DNA from: Candidatus Magasanikiibacteriota bacterium
GTDB lineage: Bacteria; Patescibacteriota; Patescibacteriia; Magasanikbacterales; 2-02-FULL-50-9b
NCBI GenBank assembly: GCA_903893485.1
Contig: CAITMK010000003.1
Coordinates: 9,922-73,921, forward strand
Direction of reading: 5' to 3'
Length of the DNA: 64,000 nucleotides
The notes under the pieces were generated by a model, which was not told the DNA's origin, made no database searches, and saw nothing but the letters and a program-made list of their open reading frames with translations. Below, piece by piece: positions 1-33,883 of the stretch; positions within the stretch are counted from its first letter, which is position 1, and every line of letters begins with the position of its first letter. A program made the position numbers and the translations under genes.

Positions 1-3000
1 GCCACCATTATATAAATCCGTAAGCTGGCCATCTTCCGTTTTGCCCGTCATGTAGGCCGCAGGAAAAGAAAAGTTTGGTTTATCAACCTCAATGCGATAA
101 TTACCAGGGCGAGCAAAAAACTGATACCGACCATCGCGATCCGTAACATGCGATTGTACGACACGGCCCGATTCCGCATCAACGATGCGTACCAATGCCA
201 AATCAGCTGGCAACTTTGAAATCGCGTTATACGCCATGCCCCACCCTTTGCGACGTTTACGCGTAAGTAAAAATAACGGTTGTGTAAATAAAAACCGGAA
301 GTACAACGCAACCTGACTAAAATTTAATGCAGTTGATACACTCGCCGCCACAACCGCTGCTGCCGCTGGCACCACTACCGCCTGATTTGTAATTTGAACC
401 TGCGGCGTTGCAACCGCTTGCTGAACTGCCACCGCGGCTTTAGTAACCGATCGCGAGACTTGCGCCGAAACAGCCTTCACTGCCGTAACAGTTGCGGCAG
501 ATACTGGCGATGAGAATGTATCTGCAACGGCTGAAATTGCATTTGATATTGTTGTTTGTGTCGAGCTAGGAGTAGCGATGATAATCGGTGTTGAGCTCAC
601 CACATCTGTAGTGGAAGAGGTCGAAGAGGTGCCTCCGGTGGTGATAGTACCGCCACCAATTCCGACGGTTGGCGTGGTTGGATTTGTAACCACTGGTGGC
701 AAAATATCCTTTTTAACGGGTGGCGGAATGACCACGGCCTGAGTTAGTGTAATTGATCGTTGCGTTCCATCAAGAAAATCATTTGCCTGATTTAACATGC
801 GAAATTCCAATGAATAGACGCCATCTTGTGCTGGTAATGATAAATTTATATTCCAATTAGCATCTGACCCAACGGTTGTGGTGTAAGTTGTGATTCCATT
901 TTGAACAATAATAATTTTGGCGCCAATTTGCCCGGTGCCCGATGCCGCAACAGAGGTTTTTGTTACCGTAGCACCATCGCTTGGAGAATTCACAACCAGC
1001 GCAACACCCGGAGTCGCCGCAAGAACACTAAAAATATTTATATCTTGTTGTGTGTTTCCTACAATGTCGGACGCAATGGCCGTTGCCTTGTAAACACCAA
1101 CGGGCAACGCATCCGGAACTGCATACGACCAGGTTCCATCGGTTGCAACCGGCACTGCAACGTGTACAATTTCTTTACTATTCGTTTCAATTAATAATAA
1201 TAAATTTGTTTTAACATCAGCGGTACCGGTAAATACAACCGTCCCGCCAGTGACATGCGAATTATTTGTTGGCGCCTTAATGACCGGCGCAGAAGGCACT
1301 ACCGTATTTAAAGTTGTCTTTCCCACGGTAATCGCACTTTCAGTTGCCATTGCAGAGCGAACCTTGATATAAACCGTTTTTTCGCCGTCGCCTGATTGCA
1401 AAAACCATTTTTTTGTACTTGTTGCAGGTTCCCATACGCCGCCCGTAAAATCTGCAGAATTCGAAATCATCATTTGCGCCGCATTTGCGCCGTACGTTAT
1501 TGCTAACGAAACTGTTGTGGTTGAAACATATGTCGGCATTGAAATCGTTGGAGCATCCACCATTTCGATTGGTGTGCTCGACGATATCAGTGTAATCTCT
1601 TGATACGTTGGCGCAGAAAAAGTATTTGTTGGACTTTTCACTATGGCATAAATTCTTTTAACACCCAAGCTACCACTAAGCAGATAACTTATTGCTTGTT
1701 GATATGAACTTACAACCGCATTTGAAAAATCCGATGACAATGAAAAACCCATTTGTTCTGCGTTGGTCGCAACAAGCTTCAAAGTAACTGTTGTTGAGGT
1801 GGTGACGGTTGCACCATCATTAATGGTAAAGCTTTGAATTGCCGGGGTAACTGCATCAGGTCCTAAATAACTGCTAATCGATGGCGAACCACCATTTTCT
1901 GCAGATGTTGTTGCAAGCCCAAAATAAATTATTTCTTTATCAAATACTTGCGAAACGATTGTTGATGAAGCCAAGTAAATTCCAGTTGCCGCGGTAGAAA
2001 AATTAAATGCAGGTGGAGAAATTAAATTGTAATTAAAATAATTAGTTAAAGGTGTGAATCCTGTTACATCGGAAGTGACCGTGTCACTTCCTCCAGAATA
2101 AGAGGACACAGTTACCGGAACTCCCGAGACTGGCGCGCCGCCATTTCGTTCTCCTACATATACACCAACCCTAACAGATGAGGTAACCGCGCTCGCCATC
2201 GGTCCAAATAAGGTCGACGTCGGCATGATATTTGAAGCGACAAAATTATTCAGCAAGCCCGTCGCATTTGAACAGAATTGAACGCCAGTTGAAGTAGCAA
2301 CAGCATCAAATCTGGTAAGGGTATTATTTGCAGACGCACCATCGAGCGCAACACTACAACCCGCATTTGTCGATGTTGTATCTCTAATATCATTATTTGA
2401 TGAATTCAAAAAATATAAACCAGCACCATTAATAGTAAGGCCTGTTGTGTGCGAAATTGCAGGAGGATTATCAAATCCACCAACGATTGTAAGTCCTGCC
2501 CCACTCACCGCAGATGGATTATAAGTGAGTGTGCCTGCTGACGCAGTAAACGCACTTGGAACAAACGCATCTACCGCAATGCCGTGCCCAGCGCAATCTG
2601 GATCTGCGACTATCGCAGCTGCTGACGGATATAAATTATTTGGCGCCCAAACACTTAAATGAAAGCCACTGACTGAAAGCAATGCTAAATTCCAATCGTT
2701 TGTGCCGGAGCCAACTGTACTGGTGATGTCTGTGGCAGATGATGAAATTGGCTGGACATCGCAGCCGGTATTGCGGAAATAAAGAGCGCTATTTGGGGGC
2801 GATCCTATGGCACCAGAATCATTATAATCAGTACCCGCTTTTGAAAAGACAGTTTTGTTTATCAAATAAGCACTAGTCGCAGTTGATGTTGGTGCTGCAT
2901 TTGAATAGTTTGTCGTGACTCCTGAAATATATGAATTATTTACCGAATCGAGGGTGATTACATTGTGAGGAAAAATTGTATCACCTGTATTAATACTCGC

Positions 3001-4731
3001 AGAAACATTAATCAAATTAACATTAACAGCATGACCAATGTATAACGCATTCGTGCCGCCTGAAAGTGTAAAAAATAAATTTTGCAACGACAAATGGTCA
3101 ATACCATCGAAGCGCATCGGGCCAGCCTCATTTGGCGATCCAGTAACTGCAGATATCGAAGCAGATCCTGTGTATGGCCCAAAAATACCAAACATCGATG
3201 ACAGTTGCGTACTCGAGGTCATGCCTCCAAAGGTGTACATGCCAGAAGTTAAATCAATCGAATCACCATTACGAAGACCGGCGGTTGATGTTGCGATATA
3301 AAAAAGATCAAAAGCATCCACCGTGTTATAATCGATTGGATCACCATGACCAGCCCAACTGATATGAATATTTGCGCGGCGAACCCCGCTAAAGGCGCCA
3401 ATATCGTCGGTTCCGTTTACATCCAAGTAATCGCTCCATGGCGCAGGTTCCCAATCATCTGACGTTGAAATATCTTCTAATCGCATGAATGGATTTGATG
3501 TTTTATCCGTTCCATTTGGCGTAAACCCGCCAACTAAATCGCGGTATGGAATATTGAATCCATAAAACCCGTTGTAACCCTGCGTAATCGTAAGTGTTTG
3601 CGGCTGATTAAGTTGAAATGTTAATCCAGCGGTACCCGTTAAACTGCTCGACGCCATCTGCGCGGTAGGAATGAGCGGCTGCCCCTTAACTGAGGCGTAA
3701 TTATAAAATAAATTTTTTGAAATGGTGTATGATGCTGCGCCCGCGGCACCCATAATTTCTGGAGTGGCAACCGTAATAGCGGTTTCATTCCCCGTTGAAG
3801 AAGTCATGAACGTGTTATTTTCGATATCCATTGGAGCGCCCTGCTCGCTTCGAAACACAATAAAACCGTTCGTTAATGCAAATGGAGCTGAAAATACATT
3901 CCCCTTAAAAGTGATCGTAGCATTCCCAAAAATAGGATTATTTACTTGGTCCAATACGGTTCCTGTATAAAAGGTTTTATTGTTTGTAAACACAAAGGTT
4001 GCTGAATTATATCCCGTTGCCCCGTTACCATCAGTCGATCGATAATCAGTTAAATTGAAAGTATTATTATCAATGGTGAACGTACCAAGCGGTCCAGTGC
4101 CCTCAAAATTAATAAACGTTTTAAAAGAACCTGCGGGCGCACTAAAAGTATTATTGCTAATCGTTGCGTTTGTTGAAGTAGAAGCGTAAATCTGAAAATA
4201 ACCAGTGCTGCCGGTCACCAATGGCGATGTGAATGAATCTAAATTTATTGCTGATTGCGAAGCTGGGTCAAAAGTGATGTTGCTTACCGTAAAACCCGCG
4301 TTTGAACCCGCGGCAGTATTTCGATAAATTTGAAGTCTGCGCGCGTTACAATTTTGAACGCCACCCGCACCTGTTGTATTTAAATAAATTGTTGTGGATG
4401 CCGCGGTTGTGCCCAAATAAGCACCGCTACTTTCACAATCGATAACCACATCAGGCTGTGTCGCGGTAATTGTTGTTCCCGCTTCGGCCGTTGGATCGTA
4501 AGTTCCCTGCACGCGAATGGTGCCACCAACCCCAACAAAACTTGCGTCGCCTTCTGCCGCTGCAATCGTGGTGTAATCGCAACCACTTGAACACACCGTT
4601 ACCGACGCTGTTGCGTGCACCTTAAAAACTACAAAAAGTGCCCCGATAATCGCGACATATGAAAGAAAAATCGTGTACCAAACTTTTTCTTTTGGGCTTT
4701 CGACTTTACCTTTAAAAAAACCAAGATGCAT
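1..4731 (-). CDS. giant cell-surface protein, paralog 1 of 3 (partial; C-terminus runs off the window start)
   Basis: ATG at 4731 (rc of tgcat 4727-4731). N-terminus MHLGFFKGKVESPKEKVWYTIFLSYVAIIGALFVVFKVHA matches the N-termini of the two downstream paralogs. The rc of nt 1-300 encodes ...AAYMTGKTEDGQLTDL.../...RKRRKGWGMAYNAISKLPADLALVRI...DRDGRYQFFARPGNYRIEV... in the same frame as the ATG (4731 and 60 are both 0 mod 3). Only short ORFs lie on the + strand across the region. Confidence 0.8.
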   Translation of the reverse strand, partial: MHLGFFKGKVESPKEKVWYTIFLSYVAIIGALFVVFKVHATASVTVCSSGCDYTTIAAAEGDASFVGVGGTIRVQGTYDPTAEAGTTITATQPDVVIDCESSGAYLGTTAASTTIYLNTTGAGGVQNCNARRLQIYRNTAAGSNAGFTVSNITFDPASQSAINLDSFTSPLVTGSTGYFQIYASTSTNATISNNTFSAPAGSFKTFINFEGTGPLGTFTIDNNTFNLTDYRSTDGNGATGYNSATFVFTNNKTFYTGTVLDQVNNPIFGNATITFKGNVFSAPFALTNGFIVFRSEQGAPMDIENNTFMTSSTGNETAITVATPEIMGAAGAASYTISKNLFYNYASVKGQPLIPTAQMASSSLTGTAGLTFQLNQPQTLTITQGYNGFYGFNIPYRDLVGGFTPNGTDKTSNPFMRLEDISTSDDWEPAPWSDYLDVNGTDDIGAFSGVRRANIHISWAGHGDPIDYNTVDAFDLFYIATSTAGLRNGDSIDLTSGMYTFGGMTSSTQLSSMFGIFGPYTGSASISAVTGSPNEAGPMRFDGIDHLSLQNLFFTLSGGTNALYIGHAVNVNLINVSASINTGDTIFPHNVITLDSVNNSYISGVTTNYSNAAPTSTATSAYLINKTVFSKAGTDYNDSGAIGSPPNSALYFRNTGCDVQPISSSATDITSTVGSGTNDWNLALLSVSGFHLSVWAPNNLYPSAAAIVADPDCAGHGIAVDAFVPSAFTASAGTLTYNPSAVSGAGLTIVGGFDNPPAISHTTGLTINGAGLYFLNSSNNDIRDTTSTNAGCSVALDGASANNTLTRFDAVATSTGVQFCSNATGLLNNFVASNIMPTSTLFGPMASAVTSSVRVGVYVGERNGGAPVSGVPVTVSSYSGGSDTVTSDVTGFTPLTNYFNYNLISPPAFNFSTAATGIYLASSTIVSQVFDKEIIYFGLATTSAENGGSPSISSYLGPDAVTPAIQSFTINDGATVTTSTTVTLKLVATNAEQMGFSLSSDFSNAVVSSYQQAISYLLSGSLGVKRIYAIVKSPTNTFSAPTYQEITLISSSTPIEMVDAPTISMPTYVSTTTVSLAITYGANAAQMMISNSADFTGGVWEPATSTKKWFLQSGDGEKTVYIKVRSAMATESAITVGKTTLNTVVPSAPVIKAPTNNSHVTGGTVVFTGTADVKTNLLLLIETNSKEIVHVAVPVATDGTWSYAVPDALPVGVYKATAIASDIVGNTQQDINIFSVLAATPGVALVVNSPSDGATVTKTSVAASGTGQIGAKIIIVQNGITTYTTTVGSDANWNINLSLPAQDGVYSLEFRMLNQANDFLDGTQRSITLTQAVVIPPPVKKDILPPVVTNPTTPTVGIGGGTITTGGTSSTSSTTDVVSSTPIIIATPSSTQTTISNAISAVADTFSSPVSAATVTAVKAVSAQVSRSVTKAAVAVQQAVATPQVQITNQAVVVPAAAAVVAASVSTALNFSQVALYFRFLFTQPLFLLTRKRRKGWGMAYNAISKLPADLALVRIVDAESGRVVQSHVTDRDGRYQFFARPGNYRIEVDKPNFSFPAAYMTGKTEDGQLTDLYNGG

Positions 4732-4746
4732 ACATTTTGCGTATGT

Positions 4747-4785
4747 ATTATAACATTAATAAAGGTTTTATGAACCTGTTGACAA
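4747..4785 (-). promoter_or_regulatory. candidate promoter of paralog 1 (extended -10 TGTTATAAT, 15 nt upstream of the ATG)
   Basis: rc of attataaca at about 4747-4755 gives TGTTATAAT; a TTCATA -35-like hexamer lies 16 nt upstream. Confidence 0.45.
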
Positions 4786-4787
4786 CT

Positions 4788-7700
4788 CTAGGCACCTTGC
4801 ATTTGCAATGTCACATCTTTTGCAAGTGATGCGCCACCTTCTGGAGCATTTATCGTTATCGGTTCGGTTGTTACTGTTTGATAACCCGGCTTTTCTGCCA
4901 TAACATAATACTGATTTGAACCAACAAGAAATGAATAACGCCCGTCATTGCCTGTAATTTGGGTTTCCAAAAGTTTGTTATATTGTGTATCGAACACGCG
5001 AACAATTGCATTTGCAACTGCCGCACCAGAAGCGTCTTTTATAACACCCCAATCTTTTGGTTTTTTTGTTATTGCCAGGCGGCGAAACACAAAATAACTT
5101 ACAACCTGCGCAGCCAAAAACGCCCCCACAAAAATGGTTGGCGAAACTGCAAATGAGACGGCGGTAAGTACAACGCCGCCTGCGCCTAATATATTTACCA
5201 ACCGGCTCTTATTTTTTGCGTGTAAAATTTCACTCACATCCTTATGTTCCCCGCCAGGATCGAGTGGTAAATTATATGAGATCTGTGCGGCAGCGGTAAG
5301 CGGTACGGTACCACCAGTATACAAATCAGCAAGTTGCCCATCTTCTGTTTTTCCAGCCATGTATGCAGCAGGAAAAGAGAAATTTGGTTTATCAACCTCA
5401 ATACGATAATTCCCCGGGCGTGCAAAAAACTGATACCGACCATCTCGATCTGTTACGTGTGATTGCACCACGCGACCTGAATCTGCATTTATAATGCGCA
5501 CCAACGCTAAGTCTGCAGGCAATTTTGAAATTGCATTATAAGCCATACCCCACCCTTTGCGACGTTTACGCGTGAGCAAAAATAATGGTTGGGTAAACAA
5601 AAAGCGGAAATACAAAGCGATCTGCCCAAGGTTAAGTGAAGTTGAAACACCCGCCGCAACAACTGCTGCGGCTGCTGGGACCACAACCGCCTGGTTGGCA
5701 ATTTGAACCTCTGGAGCCTGAGCAATTCGTTGTGCCGCAGCAGCTGTTTTGGTAACACGAGCTGAAACTTTTTTCACAGCATCTACAGCAGCTTGAATCG
5801 GCTCTGCCGCAGCTATAAACTGCGCAGCTGTGGTGGTAACTACTGCCGGCTCCGTGCTTGTAGTTACAACAACTTGCTCCGCGCTTGTCACAATTTGGCT
5901 TGTTGATGTTGGCGTTTCAATTACTAATGTCGCACCTCCTGGAGCGGGCGCTGGAGCAGCAGTACCGCCTGGCGCGGTGACTGTGGTGGTATCAATTACT
6001 TTTTTATCTGGCGGAGGTGGAACAACTGGCAAATCCACCACAACGCTTCTTTGTACACTATCGAGAAGATTATTACCTGCGTCCACCATTCGATATTCAA
6101 ATGCGTACGTATCACTCACCGCTGCTAAAGAAATTGGGATGCTCCATTTACCATTTGTCCCAATCACACTGGTGAATGTTGCAGTGCCCTGCACCACTAC
6201 AATGTGTGCGCCCGCTTTACCAGAGCCATTTGCGACAAATATATTTTTAGAAATGGTTGTACCATCCGAAGGAAACGAAACCATGAGCGGAATCGCGGGC
6301 TCTGAAGCAAGAATTGTAAAATTACTGAAATCTTCACTCTGATTTCCTGCAATATCGGTTGATCGCGCCAAAATCTGATACGAACCAACAGGTAGCGCAT
6401 CTGGCACCGCATAACTCCACGCTCCCTGAGCACTGATTGGGAATGTAACATGCACAACCTCTTTTTGATTTGATGAAAGAGTTAATACAAACGGTTCGTG
6501 TGGATCCGCAGAACCAGAAATAGTAATCGCGCCATTGGTTAATTTTTCATTATTTTTTGGAGTAGTGATTACTGGAGTCGCCGGCGCAGTTGCGTCTAAA
6601 ATTAATGTTGCCACCACCGTTGAACTTTCTGTTCCCGTTCCAGAACGGACCTTAATATAAATTGTTTTTTGTCCATCAGGTGCTGGCAATTTCCAAACCT
6701 TATTTGGCGCTAAAGGCTCCCACTCGCTCCCCACAAAATTTGCAGAATTACTAAGCATCATTTGAGATGCCGTATCATCATAGCCAATTGTTAACAAAAC
6801 CTCTGTTGATGTTGCATATGCCGGCGCACTAATTGTTGGTGCAGTTACTGGCCGCTGCGGCGTGCTTTCTGCAACCAGTGTTATATTTTGCACTGATACC
6901 GCACTCTCGCCGCCATCACTGCCGCGGACTTTTGCATAAATGTGTTTCAGGCCAAGCGCTGAATCCAGCAAAAATGATGAGGTTTGTGAATATGCTTGCC
7001 ATACAGTATTTGCAAATGAATCGTTCAAAGAAAATACCATTTGCGTCGCAGTGTTTGCCACAATACCGAGTGTTACGGTGGTAGATGCTGTTGTAGTAGC
7101 GCCGCTATTAATTCCAAAGCTACTAATGATTGGAGTAACTGTTTGTGGCGGCCCGCTACCATTACAATTAGTACATGGCGGCGGTGGCGTAACCGGCGGA
7201 GTGGTGGAGGTCATGTATACAGTAAACGTTTGGTTTTGTGAAACCAATTCACTGCGTGTAGATGTTGCATATAAACCACCTATTGCCGCAACTGAAATTG
7301 TGTATTGCCCCGCAGCAAAGAGCCCGGAGTATGGCGTATATCCACTTCCATCCGTTGTCATTAGGGTTGAAGACGTTGCGCCGATATCTGCAATTGTTAC
7401 TGTAGCACCAGCAATTGGGGTGCTGTAAGTATCTAAAATTCGTGCGCGCGTGTTATACATGAGCGCAGGAGAAGTGGCCACAGAAGAATACGATGCCGGC
7501 ACACTGCTGAGCGTTGGAATAAAAAATTCATTATAGTTGCCCGGGTTTGCATTTGAACAAATATCGTATTCTAAACTTGCGCTTGCAACGTAATTATAAA
7601 ATAAATTTGCATTTCCACTATTTGATCCAGATGATCCCGCAAATCCAACACCGCAAGTGTTCCCTGTTGAAGTTATATTAGTAAAGGTATTTCCACCTGA

Positions 7701-9992
7701 ATCATTCATTCCTATACCAGCACCATTTACAACTTTTGTTCTGGTAAGTGCGGCTGGACTATCAAAACCTGAAATAATTGTTGCCCCAGCAGACGCAATG
7801 GCGGCACTGTTATATGTAAAATCTTGGCCAGAGAAAGTGAAGGCGTTGGAGATAAATTTATCAACTACAACACCAGCATCGCTGCACAACGCTTCAACAG
7901 TGCCTGCATCTGACGCAACATGATTAGGCATCCACATTGTTAATCGCGCATTGCCCTGCGTTGGCACTCTAATAAGTGCCAAATGCCAACTTTCTGGCAA
8001 TACCAAATGTCCGTCATTAAGGATTGCTTCTGTTACGCTCGTCGCAGTCTCAAACGCTTTAGCATCGCAACCAGAATTATTACCCCCTCCTAACGCGAGC
8101 GTTGTCGAGGTATGCCATCCAATAGATGCACCATCAGAATAATTATGACCACCATATTGGTAAGCGGTATTAGACAGCATATACGACGGAAGAGTGCTCG
8201 AGGTAAAGCCAGCTGTGGCAATGTCGGTAAATGTCGAATTCGTTACAGCATTTAAACCAAGGCCGTCCGGTGCAGATCCTGTTGTTTTTACGACTTGAAT
8301 ATCAGAGAACGCGGCATTCTGCGCATTATTAATTGTCACAGTTGGCCCCCATAATCCACCGCATGTACGATCATCAAACTTAATATGTGAAATACTAAGT
8401 GAATCAATTCCATTGAACTGGGTATCGTGCGACAAATCTAAACACGAAATATTTGTTTCGGGGCCGCCGCCAATTCCAGAGCCAGAACCAACAATGGTAA
8501 GCCCTGATGCCATACCAGTGCTAGACGAAAAAATGCCAGCTGTGTATTGACCAGCCGCAATGTGCACGGTATCACCATTTGCTAAACCACCATTTGTTGC
8601 CAAAATACTGTCGGTATTTGTCGCGTCAACTGTGTTGTAGTCAACAGTTCCTGCGGCATCGATATACACGTTAGATCGACGCACTCCGCTGTACGCACCA
8701 ATATCCTCTGTCCCATCTACATCAAAATAATCGCTCCATGGGGCAGGCTCCATATCATCGGAAGTAGACACATTTTCCAAACGTAGATGTGGGTTATCCA
8801 AACGGTCGTACGAATCCAAAGTTACATAAGCCGGGGCATAATAACCCATCGGCTCTCCAAATCCATACATCCCATTTGCGTGATTAGTAATGATATAACT
8901 TCCACCACTCTCATTTCTAAAATTAAGAGCCTGAACACCGCCGTCACCGACAGATGCAACCTGTTTATTATAAAATAAATTATATTCTATATCTGCAGAT
9001 AAGCTACCGCCATATGCAGTAGAAAACCCAACCATACTACCCATTGCAACAGTGCTCACAACCGTATTGTGCTTGAATTCAACATGATCATGTTCACCTC
9101 CTAATCCACCAAAAAAAGCTATATATGACAATCCCGTTGTCTGTGTGTATCCGAAATTAAAATAATTTCCATCAACTATAAAATCACCGCCACCAAAAGC
9201 GAGCTCATCAAACCCTACAGGGGCCGTCCCGACAAATTCAACCGTATTTGAAGAAAAATTTAAACTACCCCCACTAAAGTTCCACCAAATATTATTAAAT
9301 CCGTCAATTGTGAAGTGATTATTCGTGATAGTTCCCTGTGGCATGGCTCCACGAGTGACAAGAACGACCGAATTAAAATTCATTTCACCAGTCATGGTAT
9401 TTCCGTCGATAATAGGTGCGACTGACCAAGCAATATCAATAGTAAAATGCCCTGTATTATTCTGAATCAAAGGTCCGCTAAAATATTGCAGGGTGAGCAA
9501 AGACCACGAAGATGGGTCAAACGTATTTCCAGAAATTGTGGCCCCAGTGGTTATGTCTCCATCCAGTACAACATGAGCATTCACCAATGTATTTCGAACA
9601 TTACAATTATTTAGCGAATCGCCAGAAATCATGCTTATCGTTGTTGTTGCTGTTGGATCCAACACACCAATGTACGCTCCACTATTTTGACAATCAATTG
9701 CAGTGTTTGTGTATGATGGCGCTATTACTGCCGATGGGTACGATGGTTCCCCTGTTGGATCGTAGGTTGCTTGTACAGAAACTGTACCTCCACCAGATAG
9801 GGTGGCGTCTGTTACTGCGGTGGTGATGTTGGTGTAGTCACAACCACTAGCACACACGGTAATAGTTGGAGTTGCGTGAACACGGAAAACTACAAATAGC
9901 GCCCCGATAATCGCGACGTATAATATAAAAGTGGCAAACCAGATTTTTTCTCCCTGGCCTTCCCCATGACGTTGTAATAAACCAAAATGCAT
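4788..9992 (-). CDS. giant cell-surface protein, paralog 2 (1734 aa): N-terminal signal anchor, parallel beta-helix-like central region, Ig-like domains, C-terminal polytopic membrane module with two CarboxypepD_reg-like domains
   Basis: Uninterrupted 5.2-kb ORF with ATG start. N-terminal hydrophobic segment IWFATFILYVAIIGALFVVF follows a short basic N-terminus. Recurrent N/G/T-rich beta-helix-type repeats, PPPP linkers, and two units of [TM]-(KRRKGWG/KKPKDWG)-[~85 aa with DRDGRYQF...GNYRIEV / GNDGRYSF...YYVM]. Confidence 0.9.
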   Translation of the reverse strand: MHFGLLQRHGEGQGEKIWFATFILYVAIIGALFVVFRVHATPTITVCASGCDYTNITTAVTDATLSGGGTVSVQATYDPTGEPSYPSAVIAPSYTNTAIDCQNSGAYIGVLDPTATTTISMISGDSLNNCNVRNTLVNAHVVLDGDITTGATISGNTFDPSSWSLLTLQYFSGPLIQNNTGHFTIDIAWSVAPIIDGNTMTGEMNFNSVVLVTRGAMPQGTITNNHFTIDGFNNIWWNFSGGSLNFSSNTVEFVGTAPVGFDELAFGGGDFIVDGNYFNFGYTQTTGLSYIAFFGGLGGEHDHVEFKHNTVVSTVAMGSMVGFSTAYGGSLSADIEYNLFYNKQVASVGDGGVQALNFRNESGGSYIITNHANGMYGFGEPMGYYAPAYVTLDSYDRLDNPHLRLENVSTSDDMEPAPWSDYFDVDGTEDIGAYSGVRRSNVYIDAAGTVDYNTVDATNTDSILATNGGLANGDTVHIAAGQYTAGIFSSSTGMASGLTIVGSGSGIGGGPETNISCLDLSHDTQFNGIDSLSISHIKFDDRTCGGLWGPTVTINNAQNAAFSDIQVVKTTGSAPDGLGLNAVTNSTFTDIATAGFTSSTLPSYMLSNTAYQYGGHNYSDGASIGWHTSTTLALGGGNNSGCDAKAFETATSVTEAILNDGHLVLPESWHLALIRVPTQGNARLTMWMPNHVASDAGTVEALCSDAGVVVDKFISNAFTFSGQDFTYNSAAIASAGATIISGFDSPAALTRTKVVNGAGIGMNDSGGNTFTNITSTGNTCGVGFAGSSGSNSGNANLFYNYVASASLEYDICSNANPGNYNEFFIPTLSSVPASYSSVATSPALMYNTRARILDTYSTPIAGATVTIADIGATSSTLMTTDGSGYTPYSGLFAAGQYTISVAAIGGLYATSTRSELVSQNQTFTVYMTSTTPPVTPPPPCTNCNGSGPPQTVTPIISSFGINSGATTTASTTVTLGIVANTATQMVFSLNDSFANTVWQAYSQTSSFLLDSALGLKHIYAKVRGSDGGESAVSVQNITLVAESTPQRPVTAPTISAPAYATSTEVLLTIGYDDTASQMMLSNSANFVGSEWEPLAPNKVWKLPAPDGQKTIYIKVRSGTGTESSTVVATLILDATAPATPVITTPKNNEKLTNGAITISGSADPHEPFVLTLSSNQKEVVHVTFPISAQGAWSYAVPDALPVGSYQILARSTDIAGNQSEDFSNFTILASEPAIPLMVSFPSDGTTISKNIFVANGSGKAGAHIVVVQGTATFTSVIGTNGKWSIPISLAAVSDTYAFEYRMVDAGNNLLDSVQRSVVVDLPVVPPPPDKKVIDTTTVTAPGGTAAPAPAPGGATLVIETPTSTSQIVTSAEQVVVTTSTEPAVVTTTAAQFIAAAEPIQAAVDAVKKVSARVTKTAAAAQRIAQAPEVQIANQAVVVPAAAAVVAAGVSTSLNLGQIALYFRFLFTQPLFLLTRKRRKGWGMAYNAISKLPADLALVRIINADSGRVVQSHVTDRDGRYQFFARPGNYRIEVDKPNFSFPAAYMAGKTEDGQLADLYTGGTVPLTAAAQISYNLPLDPGGEHKDVSEILHAKNKSRLVNILGAGGVVLTAVSFAVSPTIFVGAFLAAQVVSYFVFRRLAITKKPKDWGVIKDASGAAVANAIVRVFDTQYNKLLETQITGNDGRYSFLVGSNQYYVMAEKPGYQTVTTEPITINAPEGGASLAKDVTLQMQGA

Positions 9993-10009
9993 ACGTGGGT
10001 GGCGTATGC

Positions 10010-10045
10010 ATTATAGCACTTAAAAAGATTTTTCGGATCTGTTAG
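10010..10045 (-). promoter_or_regulatory. candidate promoter of paralog 2 (extended -10 TGCTATAAT)
   Basis: rc of attatagca at about 10010-10018, 17 nt from the ATG at 9992. Confidence 0.45.
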
Positions 10046-10050
10046 TAATT

Positions 10051-13000
10051 CTAGACCGCTTGCATTTGCAATGTCACATCTTTTGCAAGCGCCGCGCTGC
10101 CTTCTGGAGCATTTATTATGATCGGCTCCGTTGTTAAATTCTGAAAACCTGCTTTTTCTACCATTATGTAATATTGATTTTTACCAACCAAGAATGAATA
10201 CCTACCTTGGTCATCAGTAATCTGTGTTTCCAAAAGTTTATTATATTGTGTATCAAACACGCGAACAATTGCTTGAGCTACTGGTTTGCCATCACTGCCA
10301 CGAACAACACCCCAATCATGCGGCTTTGGTGGAAGTGCGAGGCGGCGGAATACAAAGTAGCTCACCACTTGAGCTGCCAAAAATGCACCCACAAAAATTG
10401 TCGGAGAAACTGCAAATGAGACGGCGGTAAGAACAACGCCGCCTGCGCCAAGTATATTTACTAAACGATTTTTTGCTTTTGTACGCAAAATTTCTCGCGC
10501 AGGTTTTGCATCGCCACCAGGGGCTAATGGTAAGTTGTATGAAATTTGGCCAGCAGCGGCAAGTGGTACGGTGCCACCGGTATATAAATCGGTGAGCGCG
10601 CCATCTTCTGTTTTCCCTTGCATGTACGCAGGTGGAAATGAATAATTTGGTTTTGTTACCTCAAGACGATAATTCCCTGGACGCGCAAAAAACTGATACC
10701 GACCATCTCGATCTGTTACGTGTGATTGCACCACGCGACCTGAATCTGCATTTATAATGCGCACCAACGCTAAGTCTGCAGGCAATTTTGAAATTGCATT
10801 ATAAGCCATGCCCCACCCTTTGCGGCGTTTACGCGTGAGCAAAAATAATGGTTGGGTAAACAAAAAGCGGAAATACAAAGCGATCTGCCCAAAATTTAAC
10901 GCGGTCGAGACGCCTGCCACCACAACTGCAGCTGCAGCCGGAACTACAACCGCTTGGTTGGCGATTTGGACTTGTGGAGCCGCCACAATTTGTGCCGCCG
11001 CAACACGTATTTTACGAACAGATTTAACTACGCTCACTGACGCAGCAGTAACGGTTTCTGAAATTTTTTGAGCAGTAACTGTTTGTGCAACGTTTTCCGG
11101 AATAGTGACGGTGCTGGTGGTGCTCGTGGTGTTTGCGGGTTCCTGTACGACGAGCGGAACAGTTGTTGTCGTTATTATCTCAGTGGATGTTGCCATCGGC
11201 GCAATAACTCCCCCAGCAACTGGAGCAGGCGCTGCAATTGGTACCAAACCTGGTGTATCTTTTTTAACTGGTGGAGGTGGAACCGCTGGTAAATCTACGA
11301 TGATAGTGCGCTGAACACTGTCCAACAAATTGCTCGAAGCGTCTACCATGCGGTATTCAAATGCATAGGTATCGCTCACCGCTGCCAAAGAAATTGGAAC
11401 ACTCCATTTACCATTTGTGTCAACAATGCTCGTGAATGTGGCGCCGCCTTGCACAATCACAATGTGTGACTGTGGTTTACCATGGCCACTTGCCGTAAAA
11501 GAATTTTTGGTAATATGCACGTTGTCTTGCGGTGAATCAACCGAAAGCGGAATCAGTGGTTCTGCAGCCAAAATAGTAAAACTTGCCGTATCAGAACTCA
11601 TATTTCCCGCAATATCCGTTGCCGACGCAACTATCTGATACGATCCCACTGGTAAATCGTCTGGAACGGCATAGCTCCAACCCCCTTGTGGGCTCACTGG
11701 CAATGTCACATGAACTTTTTCTGCCCCACCTGAAGTTACTATCAAAACAAACAGTTCGTGCGGATCTGCAGTGCCAGAAATAGTTATGGTGCCAGTGGTC
11801 AGCTTTTCATTATTTTGTGGATTTGCAATAACAGGAGTTATCGGCGCGGTTGCATCCAAAATCACTTTTGCGACTACTACAGAACTTTCTATGCCTGTTC
11901 CCGAGCGAACCTTTAAATAGATTGATTTTTGGCCGTCGGGCGTTGGCAATGTCCAAACTTTAGTTGGTAACAAAGTCTCCCACACGCCTCCAACAAAATC
12001 TGATGAATTACTAAGCATCATTTGGGAGGCGGTATCGTCGTAACCAATTGCAAGTAATACACTTGTCGACGTTGTATAAGCGGGTGCGCTAATCGTTGGT
12101 GCTGTTACTGGCCGTTGCGGTGTACTTTCGGCAACTAGTGTAATATTTTGCACCGATACCGCGCTTTCGCCACCATCACTACCGCGAACTTTTGCATAAA
12201 TGTGTTTTAAACCAAGCGCTGAGTCCAATATAAATGAGGATGTTTGTGAATATGCCTGCCATACCGTATTTGTAAATGAATTATTTAAAGAAAACACCAT
12301 CTGAGAAGCACCGTTCGCCGCAATACCAAGTGTAACCGTGGTAGACGCGGTCGTAGTTGCGCCACCATTAATACCAAAACTGCTGATGATTGGAGTAACT
12401 ACTTGTGGTGGCCCACCGCCAGTACAAGTAGTGCATGGTGGTGTAATTATCACGGGCGCCGACGAAGACATGTATACCGTAAAAAGCTGGTTTTGAGAAA
12501 TCAAATCAGCGCTCGTGGATGAGGTATACAATCCATTAATTGGTGCAGCAGAAACCACGAATGGACCGCTTGAACCACCGTCGATAAGCAAAAAATCATC
12601 TGGTCGGTATTGCTGTGACATGAAGTAATCGGCGTTGGAAACATACCCGTCTCCATCAGTTACATAATCATGTGATGTAATGCCTCCACCAATATTACTG
12701 TCGTGAATTGTGACCGTAGCACCCGCTACCGGCGCTCCGTACATATCTAAAATTAAGGCTCGCGGTTTATACAACAACATGATAGATCCTGTATTTTTCA
12801 TGTATACCGACCCTCGTGTAATTGTAGGTCCAAACAAAAAATTATAGGTTTGACTTGGTCCTAAACTATCATCAGAGCAAAGATCATATTCCAAACTCGA
12901 GGTGGCAACAAAATTATATAAATTATTTTGCGCATATGCAGCTCCAGAAGCTCCTTCAAACAAAACGCCACAGGTGTTACCCGTTGAAGTGACATTGGTA

Positions 13001-15324
13001 AATGTATTATTCCCCGAATCAGTGATGTCCAAGCCGGCGCCAAAAAAGTTTTTAGTTACGTGATGAGTAATTTGCGGCATCCACAGCCCAAAGCCACTTG
13101 CATAACGAATACCTTGGGCTTGAAGCATGTCAAAATTATAAGTAAAGCTACCACCAGATACCGTAAAAGCATTGGAAACAAACTTATCAACGGTAATTGA
13201 ATATCCGCCGCCAATGTTTGAGCAATCCGTTTCAATCGCTGCTCCACTTGAGGCGATATTATTTGGAACCCACATGGTAAGACGTGCTGGAGAGGAAAAC
13301 CCGTGAATCACCACCGCCGCGACATTCCAATTGTTTGTTGCGTCACCAACGAGACTCGTAATATCAAGATCTCCACCACCCTCATCACTCGTCTTTACAT
13401 CGCAACTACCATTCGTCATGACAAGCGTCGATGATACGGTACCACCGACAACCGGCCCATCCGTATAATTGGATCCACCAAAAAAGATCGGGCTGCTATT
13501 TATTGAGTACGTAGAGGCTGGCTGTGTGCTCGAGGTAAATCCTGAAATATCTAAATCCGTAAATGTCGAACCTGTGACGCGTTGCAAACTCAGCCCGTTG
13601 GTACTTGAACCTGTACCTTGCGCCACTTTTACATCATTCATCGTCACGTTATTAGCATCAGTAATTTTAATTGCCGCTGGACTTTGCGAACAGCCATCAT
13701 CAAAGGCAAGGTGTGAAAATGTTAAATCATTCAACCCAACAAAGCGTGCAAAACATCCAATTTTTGAAACGGGGCCTCCGTTAATACCAGATCCAGCGCC
13801 GACAATGGTAAGTCCGCCATAAAAATATGAACTTGTTGCCACTTCTGACACCTCATATGCCCCCGGAGCGAGATGAATAGTATCGCCCCACTTAAGACCG
13901 CTGTCCGTAGCAAGGATTCCCAAAGTACTTGTTGCATCAACCGTATTATAATCAACTGTACCAGACGCATCGATATAAATATCAGTCCGATGAGAATTAT
14001 GATAAGCCCCAATACCACTCCCATCTCCGCCATCTAAATAGTAACTCCAAGGTGCCGGATACATATCATCTGCGGTTGACAGATTTTCTCTGCGGAAATG
14101 TGGATCTTCCGTAAGATCATGGGAGCTAACAGGAATTGAAGCGGTTCCGTTGTTTGATATTATGTGTGAAAAACCATGGGCGCCATTAAAACCTTCTCCA
14201 GCTGAAAATGTACCTTCACCAAGCTCAGCTTCAAACGCAATTGCGTTTATATTGGAATCTGTACCAAGAGGAACTGGCGTTAAATTATCAAACAGATTCG
14301 ATCGAAGCGTTGCGGTCGTTCCCGCGGTAGTATTAACAAAACGAACCAAACTCCCCGATGACAACGGCGCAACAACGGTATTATGTGTAAACTGATAATC
14401 ATTTGTCACCCCCGTACAATTCCACCCAAATTGTAAATGTTCGTATGGTGTCGCCACATCATAGGCAAAAGAAAAATAATTGTAACTCACGTTAAAAGTT
14501 CCGCCACAAAAACTCATTTGTGGATTATTAATTGATTGTGTTCCAGTAAACGTAACCGTATTTCGTTCAAAATCTAAATCGCCGTTATTGTAGCTCCACC
14601 AATTTCCATCAAAATTTGTAATCGTAAACGTATTATTTGTCATTGTCGCATTCGTTGGCGCCACTAGCCCTGAAGCACCAAATAACGTCGAAATAATTGA
14701 CGAAAAATTATTTGATCCCACTAACGAGTTTCCGTCAAGAAGTGGATTTACCGCACTAGCGCCTGAATTAGAGCTCAAACTTATCGATACTTTCCCGGTA
14801 TTATTTTGAAAAACAGGATTAACCATTTCAGCAAGTGAAACCGATGACCATGCCGCAGCGTCAAACGTATTTCCAGTTATGGCAATCCCCGTAACACCAG
14901 TGCCCAGTGTTTGTATATTTACGTGCCGCGCATTGCAATTAGTTATCGAATTACTTCCAATCAAATTGAAAGTCGTGGTTGCAGTTCCATCGGTCACCCC
15001 AAGATACGCGCCACTATTTTGACAATCAATTATTGTGCTTGTATATGATGGTGTAATCACGGCTGCTGGGTATGAGGGCTCACCTGTCGGATCATAGGTT
15101 GCTTGAACGGTTACAGTACCACCGCTAGAAAGCGTGGCATCAGTCACTGCGCTTGTAATATTGGTGTAATCACAACCACTCGCACATACCGTAATCACTG
15201 GCGTTGCATGTACTTTAAAAACTACAAAAAGTGCCCCGATTATCGCGACATACGAAAGAAAAATTGTGTACCAAACTTTTTCTTTTGAGTTCTCGGCTGT
15301 GCGCTGTAAAAAACCAAAATGCAT
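10051..15324 (-). CDS. giant cell-surface protein, paralog 3 (about 1757 aa from the ATG at 15324; the ORF track begins at a TTG at 15333)
   Basis: Same architecture as 4788..9992. C-terminal ~850 aa are about 90% identical to paralog 2 and the first ~110 aa are also conserved. The MHFGFLQ start aligns with MHFGLLQ and MHLGFF of the paralogs. Confidence 0.9.
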   Translation of the reverse strand: MHFGFLQRTAENSKEKVWYTIFLSYVAIIGALFVVFKVHATPVITVCASGCDYTNITSAVTDATLSSGGTVTVQATYDPTGEPSYPAAVITPSYTSTIIDCQNSGAYLGVTDGTATTTFNLIGSNSITNCNARHVNIQTLGTGVTGIAITGNTFDAAAWSSVSLAEMVNPVFQNNTGKVSISLSSNSGASAVNPLLDGNSLVGSNNFSSIISTLFGASGLVAPTNATMTNNTFTITNFDGNWWSYNNGDLDFERNTVTFTGTQSINNPQMSFCGGTFNVSYNYFSFAYDVATPYEHLQFGWNCTGVTNDYQFTHNTVVAPLSSGSLVRFVNTTAGTTATLRSNLFDNLTPVPLGTDSNINAIAFEAELGEGTFSAGEGFNGAHGFSHIISNNGTASIPVSSHDLTEDPHFRRENLSTADDMYPAPWSYYLDGGDGSGIGAYHNSHRTDIYIDASGTVDYNTVDATSTLGILATDSGLKWGDTIHLAPGAYEVSEVATSSYFYGGLTIVGAGSGINGGPVSKIGCFARFVGLNDLTFSHLAFDDGCSQSPAAIKITDANNVTMNDVKVAQGTGSSTNGLSLQRVTGSTFTDLDISGFTSSTQPASTYSINSSPIFFGGSNYTDGPVVGGTVSSTLVMTNGSCDVKTSDEGGGDLDITSLVGDATNNWNVAAVVIHGFSSPARLTMWVPNNIASSGAAIETDCSNIGGGYSITVDKFVSNAFTVSGGSFTYNFDMLQAQGIRYASGFGLWMPQITHHVTKNFFGAGLDITDSGNNTFTNVTSTGNTCGVLFEGASGAAYAQNNLYNFVATSSLEYDLCSDDSLGPSQTYNFLFGPTITRGSVYMKNTGSIMLLYKPRALILDMYGAPVAGATVTIHDSNIGGGITSHDYVTDGDGYVSNADYFMSQQYRPDDFLLIDGGSSGPFVVSAAPINGLYTSSTSADLISQNQLFTVYMSSSAPVIITPPCTTCTGGGPPQVVTPIISSFGINGGATTTASTTVTLGIAANGASQMVFSLNNSFTNTVWQAYSQTSSFILDSALGLKHIYAKVRGSDGGESAVSVQNITLVAESTPQRPVTAPTISAPAYTTSTSVLLAIGYDDTASQMMLSNSSDFVGGVWETLLPTKVWTLPTPDGQKSIYLKVRSGTGIESSVVVAKVILDATAPITPVIANPQNNEKLTTGTITISGTADPHELFVLIVTSGGAEKVHVTLPVSPQGGWSYAVPDDLPVGSYQIVASATDIAGNMSSDTASFTILAAEPLIPLSVDSPQDNVHITKNSFTASGHGKPQSHIVIVQGGATFTSIVDTNGKWSVPISLAAVSDTYAFEYRMVDASSNLLDSVQRTIIVDLPAVPPPPVKKDTPGLVPIAAPAPVAGGVIAPMATSTEIITTTTVPLVVQEPANTTSTTSTVTIPENVAQTVTAQKISETVTAASVSVVKSVRKIRVAAAQIVAAPQVQIANQAVVVPAAAAVVVAGVSTALNFGQIALYFRFLFTQPLFLLTRKRRKGWGMAYNAISKLPADLALVRIINADSGRVVQSHVTDRDGRYQFFARPGNYRLEVTKPNYSFPPAYMQGKTEDGALTDLYTGGTVPLAAAGQISYNLPLAPGGDAKPAREILRTKAKNRLVNILGAGGVVLTAVSFAVSPTIFVGAFLAAQVVSYFVFRRLALPPKPHDWGVVRGSDGKPVAQAIVRVFDTQYNKLLETQITDDQGRYSFLVGKNQYYIMVEKAGFQNLTTEPIIINAPEGSAALAKDVTLQMQAV

Positions 15325-15342
15325 ACGCGACAAAGCAATCTT

Positions 15343-32197: not shown

Positions 32198-33883
32198 ATG
32201 CGATTGTTAATCGCGGTAGTTTCCCTCGTCGGCGCCGTGTGGTTGCCGATGGGATGTGGGAGCGATAGCAGTGCTATCACCCCCACCGATGCTGGTTCCG
32301 GAGATACCGGCAGCGACGTGGGCTTGCCCAATGCACCAACGCCGTGCGGTTCGGCCGCGGAGTGTCAGTACGAAGGAATGCAGAAAGAATGCCGCAAGGC
32401 TACCTGCGACCTCACGGCTGGTCACTGCGTGGTGAATCAAGCGGACGACGGCGACCAATGCATGGCCGGCAATGCCTGCTACGACAAAGGGACCTGCACC
32501 GCGGGCCAATGCGTCGTCGGGAAGGCCGTGCTGTGCGATGACGGAATCGCGTGCACCATCGACAGCTGCGACATCACGACCGGTTGCCTGCACAAGCCCC
32601 TCCAAGAGGGCGCGGACTGCGACGACGGCAACGTGTGTACGGTTGGCGATCAATGCACTAAGTTCGGCCTTTGCGCGGGCACCAAGCAAACCTGCGACGA
32701 CGGCGAGATCTGCACCAACGACTCGTGCAACCCGGTCAGCGGCGCGTGCGAAAACACGCCAACCAATGGCCCATGTGACGATGGCAAGGTCTGCACCAAC
32801 GACTCGTGTGTTGGTGGCAAATGCCTCGGCGTCGAAATCAAATGCGACGACGGCAACTTCTGCACCATCGACAAATGCGTCGAAGCCTTTGGCGGCTGTG
32901 TCGGCACCAACTCTTCCGGCGGACCGTGCAATGACGGCGACGGATGCACGGTGGGCGACACGTGCGACAGCGGTATCTGCAAATCGGGTACACCCCAAGT
33001 TTGTAACGACGGCAACGTCTGCACAGCGGAAAAGTGTTCATCGCCGAGCGGCACCTGTGTGTTCACCAAGTCCACCGAGACCCAGTGCAACGACGGTAAT
33101 CTATGCACGGAAAATGACCTGTGCGACACCGTGGCGCCGTGGGTGTGCAAAGGCGGCAAGCCGCTCGTGTGTGACGACGGTAACGTCTGCACCTCCGACA
33201 GCTGCACGGGCAATGGCGGCTGCGCATTTACGCCGAACAACGGCACGTGCGACGACAACAACTCGTGCACGGTGGGCGACACGTGCGTGGCCAAAGAGTG
33301 CCAGCCGAGCAACTTGCAGAAGTGCGACGACAACAACCCGTGCACCACGGACTCGTGTTCGCCAATCACGGGCTGCATCTTCGACGCCAATTCCATCAGC
33401 TGCACGGATGGCAACAGCTGCACGCTGGATGACAAGTGCGCGAACAAATCGTGCGTGGGCGTGGGTGTGGTCTGCAACGACAACAACCCGTGCACCACGG
33501 ACTGGTGTTCGCCGGACCTGGGTTGCCAGGCCGACAAGCTGTCCGTCAACGCAACGTGCAACGATGGCAACGGCTGCACGGGCCCGGACCTGTGCGATGG
33601 CGCTGGCAAATGCAGCGGCAAGACAATTTCGAATTGCGACGACGGCAATTCGTGCACGGACGACTCGTGCAATCCGACCAATGGTTCGTGCGTGAACAAA
33701 GCCAAGCTTGACGGCTCGGCCTGCACGGACAACAACGCGTGCAGCTCCGGCGACGCGTGCAAAGGTGGCATTTGTGCAGCCGTTGCCGTGGACTTGTGCA
33801 ACGACAACGTGACCTGCACCGTGGACATTTGCAATCCGGCCAACGGCGCGTGCTCCCACACGCTCGACCCGAACTGCAAGTAA
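32198..33883 (+). CDS. cysteine-rich tandem-repeat lipoprotein (about 13 ~38-aa CDDGNxCTxDxC...GC repeats)
   Basis: Strong SD (AAAGGAG) 7 nt before the ATG, signal peptide ending ...WLPMGCGS, periodic Cys spacing, about 62% GC. Many alternative-frame ORFs on both strands are artefacts of GC and repeat structure. Confidence 0.8.
   Translation: MRLLIAVVSLVGAVWLPMGCGSDSSAITPTDAGSGDTGSDVGLPNAPTPCGSAAECQYEGMQKECRKATCDLTAGHCVVNQADDGDQCMAGNACYDKGTCTAGQCVVGKAVLCDDGIACTIDSCDITTGCLHKPLQEGADCDDGNVCTVGDQCTKFGLCAGTKQTCDDGEICTNDSCNPVSGACENTPTNGPCDDGKVCTNDSCVGGKCLGVEIKCDDGNFCTIDKCVEAFGGCVGTNSSGGPCNDGDGCTVGDTCDSGICKSGTPQVCNDGNVCTAEKCSSPSGTCVFTKSTETQCNDGNLCTENDLCDTVAPWVCKGGKPLVCDDGNVCTSDSCTGNGGCAFTPNNGTCDDNNSCTVGDTCVAKECQPSNLQKCDDNNPCTTDSCSPITGCIFDANSISCTDGNSCTLDDKCANKSCVGVGVVCNDNNPCTTDWCSPDLGCQADKLSVNATCNDGNGCTGPDLCDGAGKCSGKTISNCDDGNSCTDDSCNPTNGSCVNKAKLDGSACTDNNACSSGDACKGGICAAVAVDLCNDNVTCTVDICNPANGACSHTLDPNCK

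Follow-up and report, generated by a model that had tools for sequence, protein, structure and literature searches.

How does a cell hold a giant surface protein whose C-terminal end alternates hydrophobic helices with folded domains, and on which side of the membrane do those domains come to lie? These questions are raised by a gene of Candidatus Magasanikiibacteriota that lies in the window, i.e. the whole 64,000-nucleotide stretch analyzed here. Gene A (4788..9992, minus strand), recognized from the list of open reading frames (ORFs) and its translation, encodes a giant surface protein of 1734 amino acids (aa) with Pfam matches to Big_13 and CarboxypepD_reg. It comprises an N-terminal hydrophobic leader, a low-charge ectodomain of ~1400 aa, and a C-terminal module encoded by nt 4788–5750 of the minus strand (aa 1415–1734 plus the stop codon). 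We find that this module is an undescribed, widespread C-terminal anchor, specific to Patescibacteria and borne by many unrelated exported ectodomains. An earlier, sequence-only reading of the locus had proposed that its giant proteins end in a repeated unit of hydrophobic segments, a basic patch and a β-sandwich, which is confirmed by translation, Pfam, AlphaFold2 (AF2) modelling and hhalign.

In protein A, an Ala-rich helical stalk is followed by helices H1 and H2, the basic string TRKRRKGWG, domain D1, the string KNKSR, helices H3 and H4, a second basic string (RRLAITKKPKDWG), domain D2 and the stop codon (all on the minus strand). Helix 1 (5634..5714) consists of a capping motif with an acidic extension (aa 1427–1434) and the hydrophobic H1 itself (aa 1435–1453, AVVVPAAAAVVAAGVSTSL). 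The capping motif has the family consensus NPxVE and reads APEVQ in protein A; Pro1439 is invariant, and AF2 places the helix at query residues 10–35. We propose that H1 is a stop-transfer membrane span. A two-residue link joins it to helix 2 (5574..5630; aa 1455–1473, LGQIALYFRFLFTQPLFLL; family consensus YLxFLFTQPLLLL), which AF2 draws at residues 38–56 with a predicted local distance difference test score (pLDDT) of 53–70. The first polybasic-WG junction, TRKRRKGWG (5547..5573; aa 1474–1482, from the translation), comes next. Its positions R58, R61 and W64 are at least 90% conserved and G65 is invariant in profile A2, one of the two profiles used for the family. The junction leads into D1 (5256..5549; aa 1482–1579), a transthyretin-like β-sandwich matched by Pfam SdrD_B and CarboxypepD_reg, with AF2 strands at residues 65–162 (pLDDT ~90) and the conserved motifs VTDxxGRY, FPS, DLYxGx and NxPLDP.

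The second half of the module begins with helix 3 (5145..5237), in which a basic amphipathic extension (aa 1586–1597, ending in HAKNKSR) precedes a hydrophobic span (aa 1598–1616, LVNILGAGGVVLTAVSFAV; AF2 helix 169–199). The turn SPT (5136–5144; aa 1617–1619), whose Pro is at least 90% conserved and whose K+R count is 0.2 family-wide, connects it to helix 4 (5073..5135; aa 1620–1640, IFVGAFLAAQVVSYFVF followed by RRLA; AF2 helix 203–223), which is hydrophobic up to aa 1636. Taken together, H3 and H4 (aa 1598–1636) form a 39-residue hydrophobic stretch with zero charged residues, interrupted by SPT. The second polybasic-WG junction (5046..5084; aa 1637–1649, from the translation) aligns with the first in hhalign, and both basic strings quoted in the earlier reading are present in protein A. 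It is followed by D2 (4791..5048; aa 1649–1734), another transthyretin-like β-sandwich with AF2 strands at residues 232–306 (pLDDT 85–92), of which aa 1649–1718 are the best CarboxypepD_reg stretch. D2 carries the motif YNKLLETQ(V/I)T..GRYxFLVGxNxYYV, and protein A ends with it, without a tail. Neither D1 nor D2 contains Cys. On the other side of H1, ~45 residues (window ~5715–5850) are predicted to form an α-helical stalk throughout the family; this stalk is generally K/E/A-rich and is Ala-rich in protein A. NPxVE sits at its membrane-proximal end, ~10 residues ahead of H1.

The family consensus of the first part of the module is NPxVE...VVAP.....A.AN...A......L.YL.FLFTQPLLLL.RRKRK.WG.VYNSLTK.P.DLA.VRL.D..TG..VQTRVTD..GRY, and that of the second part is I.P...Y.LFRRLA.P.KPK.WGIVYD....PL..AV.RIFD..YNKLLETQVTD..GRY.FLVG.N.YYV..EK.GY. 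Many charged or polar positions of D1 and D2 are invariant, including K, D and R residues as well as DxxGRY, DLYHGE, NIPLDP and YNKLLETQ. The spacing from the capping Pro to the Trp of the junction is 54–55 residues for unit 1 in most relatives (range 51–66) and 66–68 residues for unit 2. Insertions of eight or more residues are absent from both helix-helix turns. Natural variants with one helix deleted or with turn insertions, which would break the parity problem discussed below, were sought in the relatives and none was found. The near-fixed helix and linker lengths, together with the recurrence of the module at E<1e-90 in the top 150 representatives, indicate that it did not arise by chance.

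Sequence score and fold both assign D1 and D2 to the CarboxypepD_reg/transthyretin-like superfamily; the two domains measure ~85–100 aa. Protein A matches CarboxypepD_reg (PF13620) with 74.3 bits (cut-off 32.3, E = 1e-20), with the best stretch in D2, and D1 (aa ~1502–1550) is matched by the related SdrD_B (PF17210; 39.1 bits, cut-off 29.7). A precomputed PF13620 match is present on nearly all listed relatives. An AF2 run with a 3-sequence alignment was uninformative (pLDDT 45); the model used here, from a 32-sequence alignment, has a pLDDT of 81 overall and ~90 in both β-sandwiches, and a predicted template modelling score (pTM) of 0.61. It displays the seven-stranded transthyretin-like β-sandwich, which Foldseek matches in the PDB to the transthyretin-like domains of carboxypeptidases D and N (5aq0, 2nsm, 3mn8 and 1qmu; probability 1.00), with root-mean-square deviations of 2.7–3.2 Å over ~85 residues and 21–29% identity. 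Pfam, AF2, Foldseek and hhalign thus agree with the earlier claim of two prealbumin-like (CarboxypepD_reg) domains of ~85 aa per module, and the two checks that had been suggested for it, a CarboxypepD_reg profile match and an AlphaFold model of the C-terminal part, both came out in its favor. Units 1 and 2 align in hhalign with 99.7% probability (E = 2e-25) over 92 columns. Since this match begins at the basic patch and the WG, the repeat consists of a polybasic-WG junction plus a sandwich; homology between the H1/H2 and H3/H4 hairpins is not detectable with hhalign.

To what extent the module is shared was addressed by an exhaustive profile search covering 1.84 billion cluster representatives, in which the family, as yet unnamed, is defined by profiles A1 and A2. 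The search yielded 4941 representatives at E≤1e-3 and 1345 clusters (50% identity) at E≤1e-30. The top 150 representatives, proteins of 346–4040 aa, all cover the full module of ~310 positions, which lies at or near their C-terminus. A word-indexed homology search with the module gave 2 matches, then 30, and understated the family. Protein A is identical to P0003 of the public collections (profile score 621.9 bits). Both it and its paralogue B match the full arrangement NPxVE-H1-H2(FTQP)-RRKRKxWG-D1-H3-xPx-H4-RRLAxPxKPKxWG-D2, and paralogue C does so as far as the window allows.

When one genome per species was scanned, 111 relatives were confirmed, of which 80 loci were kept. The nearest are from Candidatus Magasanikiibacteriota (53–65% identity), and further ones, in records with credible names, are from Falkow-, Uhr-, Peri- and Parcubacteria and from unclassified Patescibacteria. 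Several genomes contain multiple family copies. Many loci (L007, L010, L015, L019, L022, L025, L028 and others) come from species-representative metagenome-assembled genomes titled 'uncultured Gammaproteobacteria', two of which are ~0.9-Mb complete chromosomes; on loci with a Patescibacteria-type protein, these labels are probably placeholder taxonomy. The carriers of the family are Patescibacteria of the Parcubacteria group. Their ectodomains are unrelated to that of protein A except in the closest orthologue (L001), and their database names are 'hypothetical' or 'carboxypeptidase regulatory-like domain-containing'. In Pfam and NCBIfam, neither the helices nor the junctions nor the whole module is covered by a model, and no description of the module was found in the literature. 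With 111 genomic relatives and 1345 clusters, the unit of membrane segment, basic WG patch and sandwich is widespread and not peculiar to the paralogues of the window.

These paralogues allow the module to be compared with the rest of the protein. Three tandem copies occupy window positions 1–15333, near infB and a purine-nucleoside-phosphorylase-like gene. Paralogue B (10051..15333, minus strand; 1757–1760 aa) has a complete module in nt 10051–11013, as seen from the translation and from its CarboxypepD_reg match (PF13620; 56.1 bits, E = 5e-15), and this module is 82–83% identical to that of protein A, compared to 32–54% over most of the length of the ectodomain. Paralogue C (1..4731, minus strand; reverse-complement translation) is visible over 1577 aa, its C-terminus lying past the window edge. 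Its nt 1–408 encode H1, H2, TRKRRKGWG and most of D1, which bears out the earlier report of the module in the reverse complement of nt 1–300; the visible module is 73–91% identical to that of protein A and the ectodomain 24–54%. The assertion that every paralogue carries the module therefore holds in full for A and B, and for C as far as the window edge shows. Among all three paralogues, the module is 73–91% identical and the ectodomain 18–54% over most of its length; the module is conserved much more strongly than the ectodomain. The closest orthologue (L001:1615-6867, Magasanikiibacteriota) is a single 1750-aa gene adjoining infB, with an N-terminus as in the window protein. Three tandem paralogues here, against a single gene there, indicate that the expansion is recent.

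The ectodomain of protein A is adhesin-like, with Big_13/Ca_tandemer-like repeats and a β-helix-like N-terminal half (Pfam, NCBIfam). It also contains a third, weaker transthyretin-like domain (7143..7472, minus strand; aa ~851–923), whose CarboxypepD_reg score of 30.5 bits (E = 4.7e-7) is just below the cut-off of 32.3. The K+R content of this domain is 1.2%, compared to 7–9% in D1 and D2 of the same protein.

The N-terminal part of these proteins is exported. In protein A, the N-terminal hydrophobic segment (9885..9944, minus strand; aa 17–36, IWFATFILYVAIIGALFVVF, then RVHA|TP) is the most hydrophobic 19-mer (summed Hessa value −2.8), and judging from its sequence it may be either a signal anchor or a signal peptide cleavable at VHA|TP. 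The N-terminal layout of the L001 orthologue is alike, with KVQA|AG. Nearly all complete family genes in the 80 loci encode an N-terminal signal peptide or type IV pilin-like leader; P0162, for example, has a classical cleavable signal peptide, and the pilin-type leader GFTLPELL (PF07963) occurs in several relatives (P0164, P0172, P0173, L018:967-2568, L041:5341-7350 and L046:616-2568). If the module truly acts as an anchor, a pilin-like member that carries it could not be released from the membrane. The prepilin motif G|FTLxE (PF07963, N_methyl) is absent from proteins A, B and C. The earlier picture of an N-in signal anchor with a giant exterior ectodomain is thus supported by the leaders of the relatives as regards export of the N-terminal part, but the proposed anchor may instead be a cleavable peptide. 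Two short members without a leader, P0167 and P0170, were considered as evidence for an all-cytoplasmic protein with four transmembrane (TM) helices and were rejected as broken gene calls. P0170 falls into the same 90% cluster as a protein of 2715 aa, and an 1898-aa ORF in a different frame lies ahead of P0167 (L081:240-7284) and overlaps it. These short database entries (P0167, P0170/P0179) are fragments of giant genes, due to a frame change or a truncated call, and could mislead surveys of domain architecture. With the leaderless members explained in this way, an all-cytoplasmic reading is excluded.

Variation on the C-terminal side of the module is seen in 36 relatives that have disordered tails after D2 bearing recurring short motifs; proteins A and B are tailless. 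The tails are 65–285 aa long (e.g. P0007, P0009, P0010, P0015, P0020, P0040, P0055 and P0071; further examples are P0072, P0084, P0088, P0112, P0131, P0135 and others). Their motifs include IPWELQxLQK / PWE..L.RLKK, coiled-coil stretches ending in a C-terminal [NS]IFG and, in Magasanik-type relatives, LLxPxxSGSRDxIITG...DGNFL. A Pfam domain in the tails would fix the side of the membrane on which they lie, and none was found there. Some giant relatives also have an extra hydrophobic pair in the middle of the protein, with a basic loop of ~60 aa between its members and repeat domains after it (P0021 aa 2098–2199, P0030 aa 2571–2642, P0059 aa 1320–1427, P0076 aa 358–470 and P0083 aa 259–384), as if the ectodomain entered the membrane and re-emerged. 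This TM-basic loop-TM element is different from the module and was rejected as evidence on it.

That the module is a membrane module is very likely, and its helices and their flanks suggest that it probably crosses the membrane three times (H1, H3 and H4) with D1 and D2 in the cytoplasm. In 150 representatives, the net charge of the 15-residue flanks is −1.3 before H1, +4.7 after H2, +3.5 before H3 and +4.0 after H4, and is ~0 in both turns. When K+R before H1 and in the H3–H4 turn are subtracted from K+R after H2, before H3 and after H4, the difference has a mean of +12.4 and a minimum of +7, and is positive in 150/150. These charges give H3/H4 the signature of a hairpin inserted from the cytoplasm, and the H1/H2 region that of a single stop-transfer segment. 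The helical extension of H1 is acidic and that of H3 basic, as expected if their N-terminal ends face opposite sides. In addition, the residues of D1 and D2 are more highly charged than those of comparable exported domains: the K+R content is 12.7% in D1 and 15% in D2, compared to 8.7% in D0, a domain of the same fold found 60–100 aa upstream of H1 in 88/171 relatives, and 5.5% in the ectodomains. In 88/88 proteins, D0 has a lower content of charged residues than D2 (Wilcoxon 5e-16).

H2 is proposed, from its sequence properties, to be a conserved juxtamembrane helix that is interfacial or re-entrant and does not fully cross the membrane. The lowest summed Hessa values for 19-mers of protein A are, after the leader, those of H3 (+1.8), H1 (+3.5) and H4 (+4.0, or +1.3 over 17 core residues), which are the three most hydrophobic internal segments of the protein. 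Family-wide, H4 has a Kyte-Doolittle (KD) hydropathy of 2.1 and a summed Hessa value of +0.65. H2, at +6.4, is not better than strands of the ectodomain (+4.9 to +5.8). Its information content of 2.52 bits per column is the highest of the four helices, 23% of its residues are aromatic (1.7% in H1), and its hydrophobic moment is 0.25 (0.08 in H1). Background-level hydrophobicity combined with high conservation and aromatic residues fits an interfacial or re-entrant helix. The original count of three or four C-terminal TM helices accordingly stands for H1, H3 and H4, which are set apart by their hydrophobicity, but not for H2, which is at the level of the ectodomain. Likewise, the placement of both sandwiches in the cytoplasm by the positive-inside rule agrees with the charge bias of the window protein and of every representative examined, but is at odds with the parity of the hairpins drawn by AF2.

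This and several other observations weigh against a cytoplasmic location of D1 and D2. AF2 depicts H1/H2 as a tight antiparallel hairpin with a two-residue turn, in the part of the model where pLDDT is lowest, and this region hardly varies in length among 250 relatives, suggesting a defined structure. Two true hairpins would return both D1 and D2 to the side of the ectodomain. CarboxypepD_reg, SdrD_B and transthyretin-like domains are typically extracytoplasmic, and a domain of this fold is found outside H1 in most relatives (D0) as well as in the ectodomain of protein A. Furthermore, all four C-terminal helices are marginally hydrophobic, with positive values on the simple Hessa sum; the tails of some relatives resemble wall-spanning segments in being rich in Pro or poor in charge; and the K/E-rich stalk lies outside H1, so a charged composition occurs outside the cytoplasm as well.

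Such observations would suit an anchor in which H1/H2 and H3/H4 are both true TM hairpins with their turns at the cytoplasmic face, and the ectodomain, D1 and D2 are all outside. We regard this arrangement as possible, if doubtful, and the same holds for its corollary that the polybasic-WG junctions lie on the outer leaflet, binding anionic lipid head groups or wall polymers, with the sandwiches forming a membrane-proximal layer. The two- and three-residue turns of the modelled hairpins, which accept no insertions between helices of fixed length, are consistent with it, as are the usual extracytoplasmic location of the fold and the Pro-rich tails; and three sandwiches on the same side (D0 or the ectodomain domain of protein A, D1 and D2) would have a simple history of duplication. 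However, it would require ~14 K/R per protein to lie on the outer side of the membrane and practically none on the inner side, which reverses the positive-inside rule in 150/150 relatives. Nor does it account for a supposed span, H2, that is no more hydrophobic than ectodomain strands, for the opposite charges on the extensions of H1 and H3, or for D1 and D2 being consistently more charged than D0, and the confidence of AF2 is lowest (53–70) at precisely the H1/H2 hairpin on which it depends.

The marginal hydrophobicity of the four helices could also be taken to mean that they do not reside in the membrane of the producing cell. The module might then be exported and insert into or bind a host-cell membrane, like the hairpins of pore-forming toxins, while the N-terminal anchor holds the protein. 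Basic patches beside the hairpins would suit a target membrane that is anionic, the lineage is inferred to live as episymbionts, and several relatives have pilin-like N-termini joined to the module. We consider such a target-membrane function very improbable: many relatives have classical cleavable signal peptides (e.g. P0162), which leaves the module as the sole possible anchor in the producer cell, the 39-residue hydrophobic H3/H4 flanked by K/R is expected to stop Sec transfer, and Pfam, NCBIfam, Foldseek and PDB sequence searches revealed no similarity to toxin translocation domains. Alternatively, the four Ala/Val/Gly-rich helices could form a bundle or an oligomeric stalk in a wall or S-layer-like assembly, with the N-terminus as the sole anchor. 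The positive Hessa sums, a pTM of 0.61 that suggests a compact arrangement, and a weak likeness to SlaB-type stalk proteins in Foldseek are compatible with this, yet it too has very little to recommend it. KD values of 1.6–2.1 over 17–19 residues in H1, H3 and H4 and the 39 positions without charge in H3/H4 speak against it, the sharp charge asymmetry of the flanks is typical of membrane spans, and those relatives whose signal peptides are cleavable would be left entirely unanchored.

We therefore return to the arrangement with three crossings and cytoplasmic D1 and D2, which would form as follows. The leader would send the variable, low-charge ectodomain of ~1400 aa through Sec, until the α-helical K/E/A-rich stalk, capped by NPxVE, runs into H1 and H1 stops transfer. 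H2 (YLxFLFTQPLLLL) and the RRKRK patch would remain at the cytoplasmic face, and D1 would fold in the cytoplasm. H3 and H4 would then insert as a helical hairpin with a three-residue external turn, after which D2 would also fold in the cytoplasm. The outcome would be a surface protein held by three spans and an interfacial helix, with D1 and D2, plus the disordered motif-bearing tail in some relatives, displayed to a conserved partner inside the cell or at the membrane face, or to each other.

An anchoring role of the module is well supported. We infer from the sequence and the model its membrane insertion, the side on which D1 and D2 lie, the non-spanning status of H2 and any partner or function beyond anchoring. 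A docking or signalling role may be envisaged, and signalling across the membrane is speculative. The conservation of the module against free variation of the ectodomain, together with the invariant charged and polar positions of D1 and D2, points to a conserved ligand or partner or to self-association, rather than to a passive spacer. It is conceivable, but improbable at present, that the module is a lineage-wide coupler of outside and inside, through which every major surface adhesin of these ultra-small episymbionts, along with some pilin-like proteins, docks via cytoplasmic D1 and D2 onto a conserved intracellular partner or lattice. If so, host contact, force or clustering could be relayed inward, or surface proteins could be positioned from inside, and the module would correspond in bacteria to integrin-type adhesion receptors, while using a fold otherwise found outside cells.

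The ultra-small Patescibacteria account for a substantial part of bacterial diversity; most have not been cultured, and they probably live attached to host cells. A single module that closes more than 1000 otherwise unrelated clusters of surface proteins provides a profile by which the surface proteome can be flagged in these lineages. Should the sandwiches lie inside, they would constitute a conserved cytoplasmic platform, whose partner could reveal how surface and interior are connected in minimal cells, and they would place a transthyretin-like fold on the cytoplasmic face of a membrane, an unusual location for it.

In other lineages, many family genes are located in a conserved operon (L001–L080; e.g. 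L016:347-1438, L019:2771-3865 and L072:6957-12944). Two signal-peptide proteins of ~360 aa are encoded upstream of the family gene (in 39/80 and 38/80 loci, respectively), and a signal-peptide protein of more than 2000 aa is encoded directly downstream on the same strand in 46/80 loci. These proteins have no significant Pfam match, and the operon is absent from the window. Elsewhere in the window, two ORFs on the plus strand (32198–33883 and 34026–35264) contain Cys-rich Dicty_CTDC repeats (E = 1e-42 and 2e-11). They lie in a block with a G+C fraction of 0.55–0.58, compared to ~0.45 in the rest of the window; no ribosomal RNA was found in this GC-rich block at 32–36 kb.

The module combines features of several known systems. 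With CarboxypepD_reg/transthyretin-like proteins it shares sequence score and fold, including PDB sequence matches to NOMO2 and SdrD. It differs from them in that D1 and D2 are each preceded by membrane helices and a polybasic-WG junction, carry the family-specific motifs YNKLLETQVTD, DLYHGE and NIPLDP, and are probably cytoplasmic, whereas the known domains are secreted, periplasmic or luminal. SlaB, the S-layer stalk protein of Sulfolobus (8qox), and NOMO of the BOS complex (9c7u/9c7v), both matched in Foldseek or profile searches, likewise have transthyretin- or Ig-like sandwiches together with a membrane anchor at the C-terminus. However, all their sandwiches lie on one side and are followed by a single terminal span, whereas sandwiches and helices alternate in the module. 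The matches to SlaB, NOMO and SdrD cover the sandwiches only (TM-score to the whole query 0.22–0.24 for SlaB and NOMO).

In its job and in the order of its elements, the module resembles the LPXTG sorting signal of Gram-positive bacteria, with a motif (NPxVE), a hydrophobic segment and a stop-transfer patch (RRKRK) at the end of variable surface proteins. There is no LPXTG in the C-terminal 330 aa of protein A, and a scan of the protein against NCBIfam, where the models of sorting signals are kept, gave Ca_tandemer only at E≤0.01 and none of the sorting tags (LPXTG, PEP-CTERM, PGF-CTERM, GlyGly-CTERM and the type IX secretion C-terminal domain, T9SS CTD). In contrast to the sorting signal, the module has no LPXTG-type motif; NPxVE looks like a helix N-cap in the AF2 model; ~250 conserved residues (D1, H3/H4 and D2) follow its first basic patch; and it shows no sign of cleavage. 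The module thus works like a Gram-positive C-terminal sorting or anchor signal but is not one. The likeness to integrin-type bitopic receptors is a functional analogy without homology: both would join a large variable adhesive ectodomain through the membrane to a small conserved intracellular part on which partners could dock, but the module has three or four helices instead of one, and its intracellular part would consist of two β-sandwiches.

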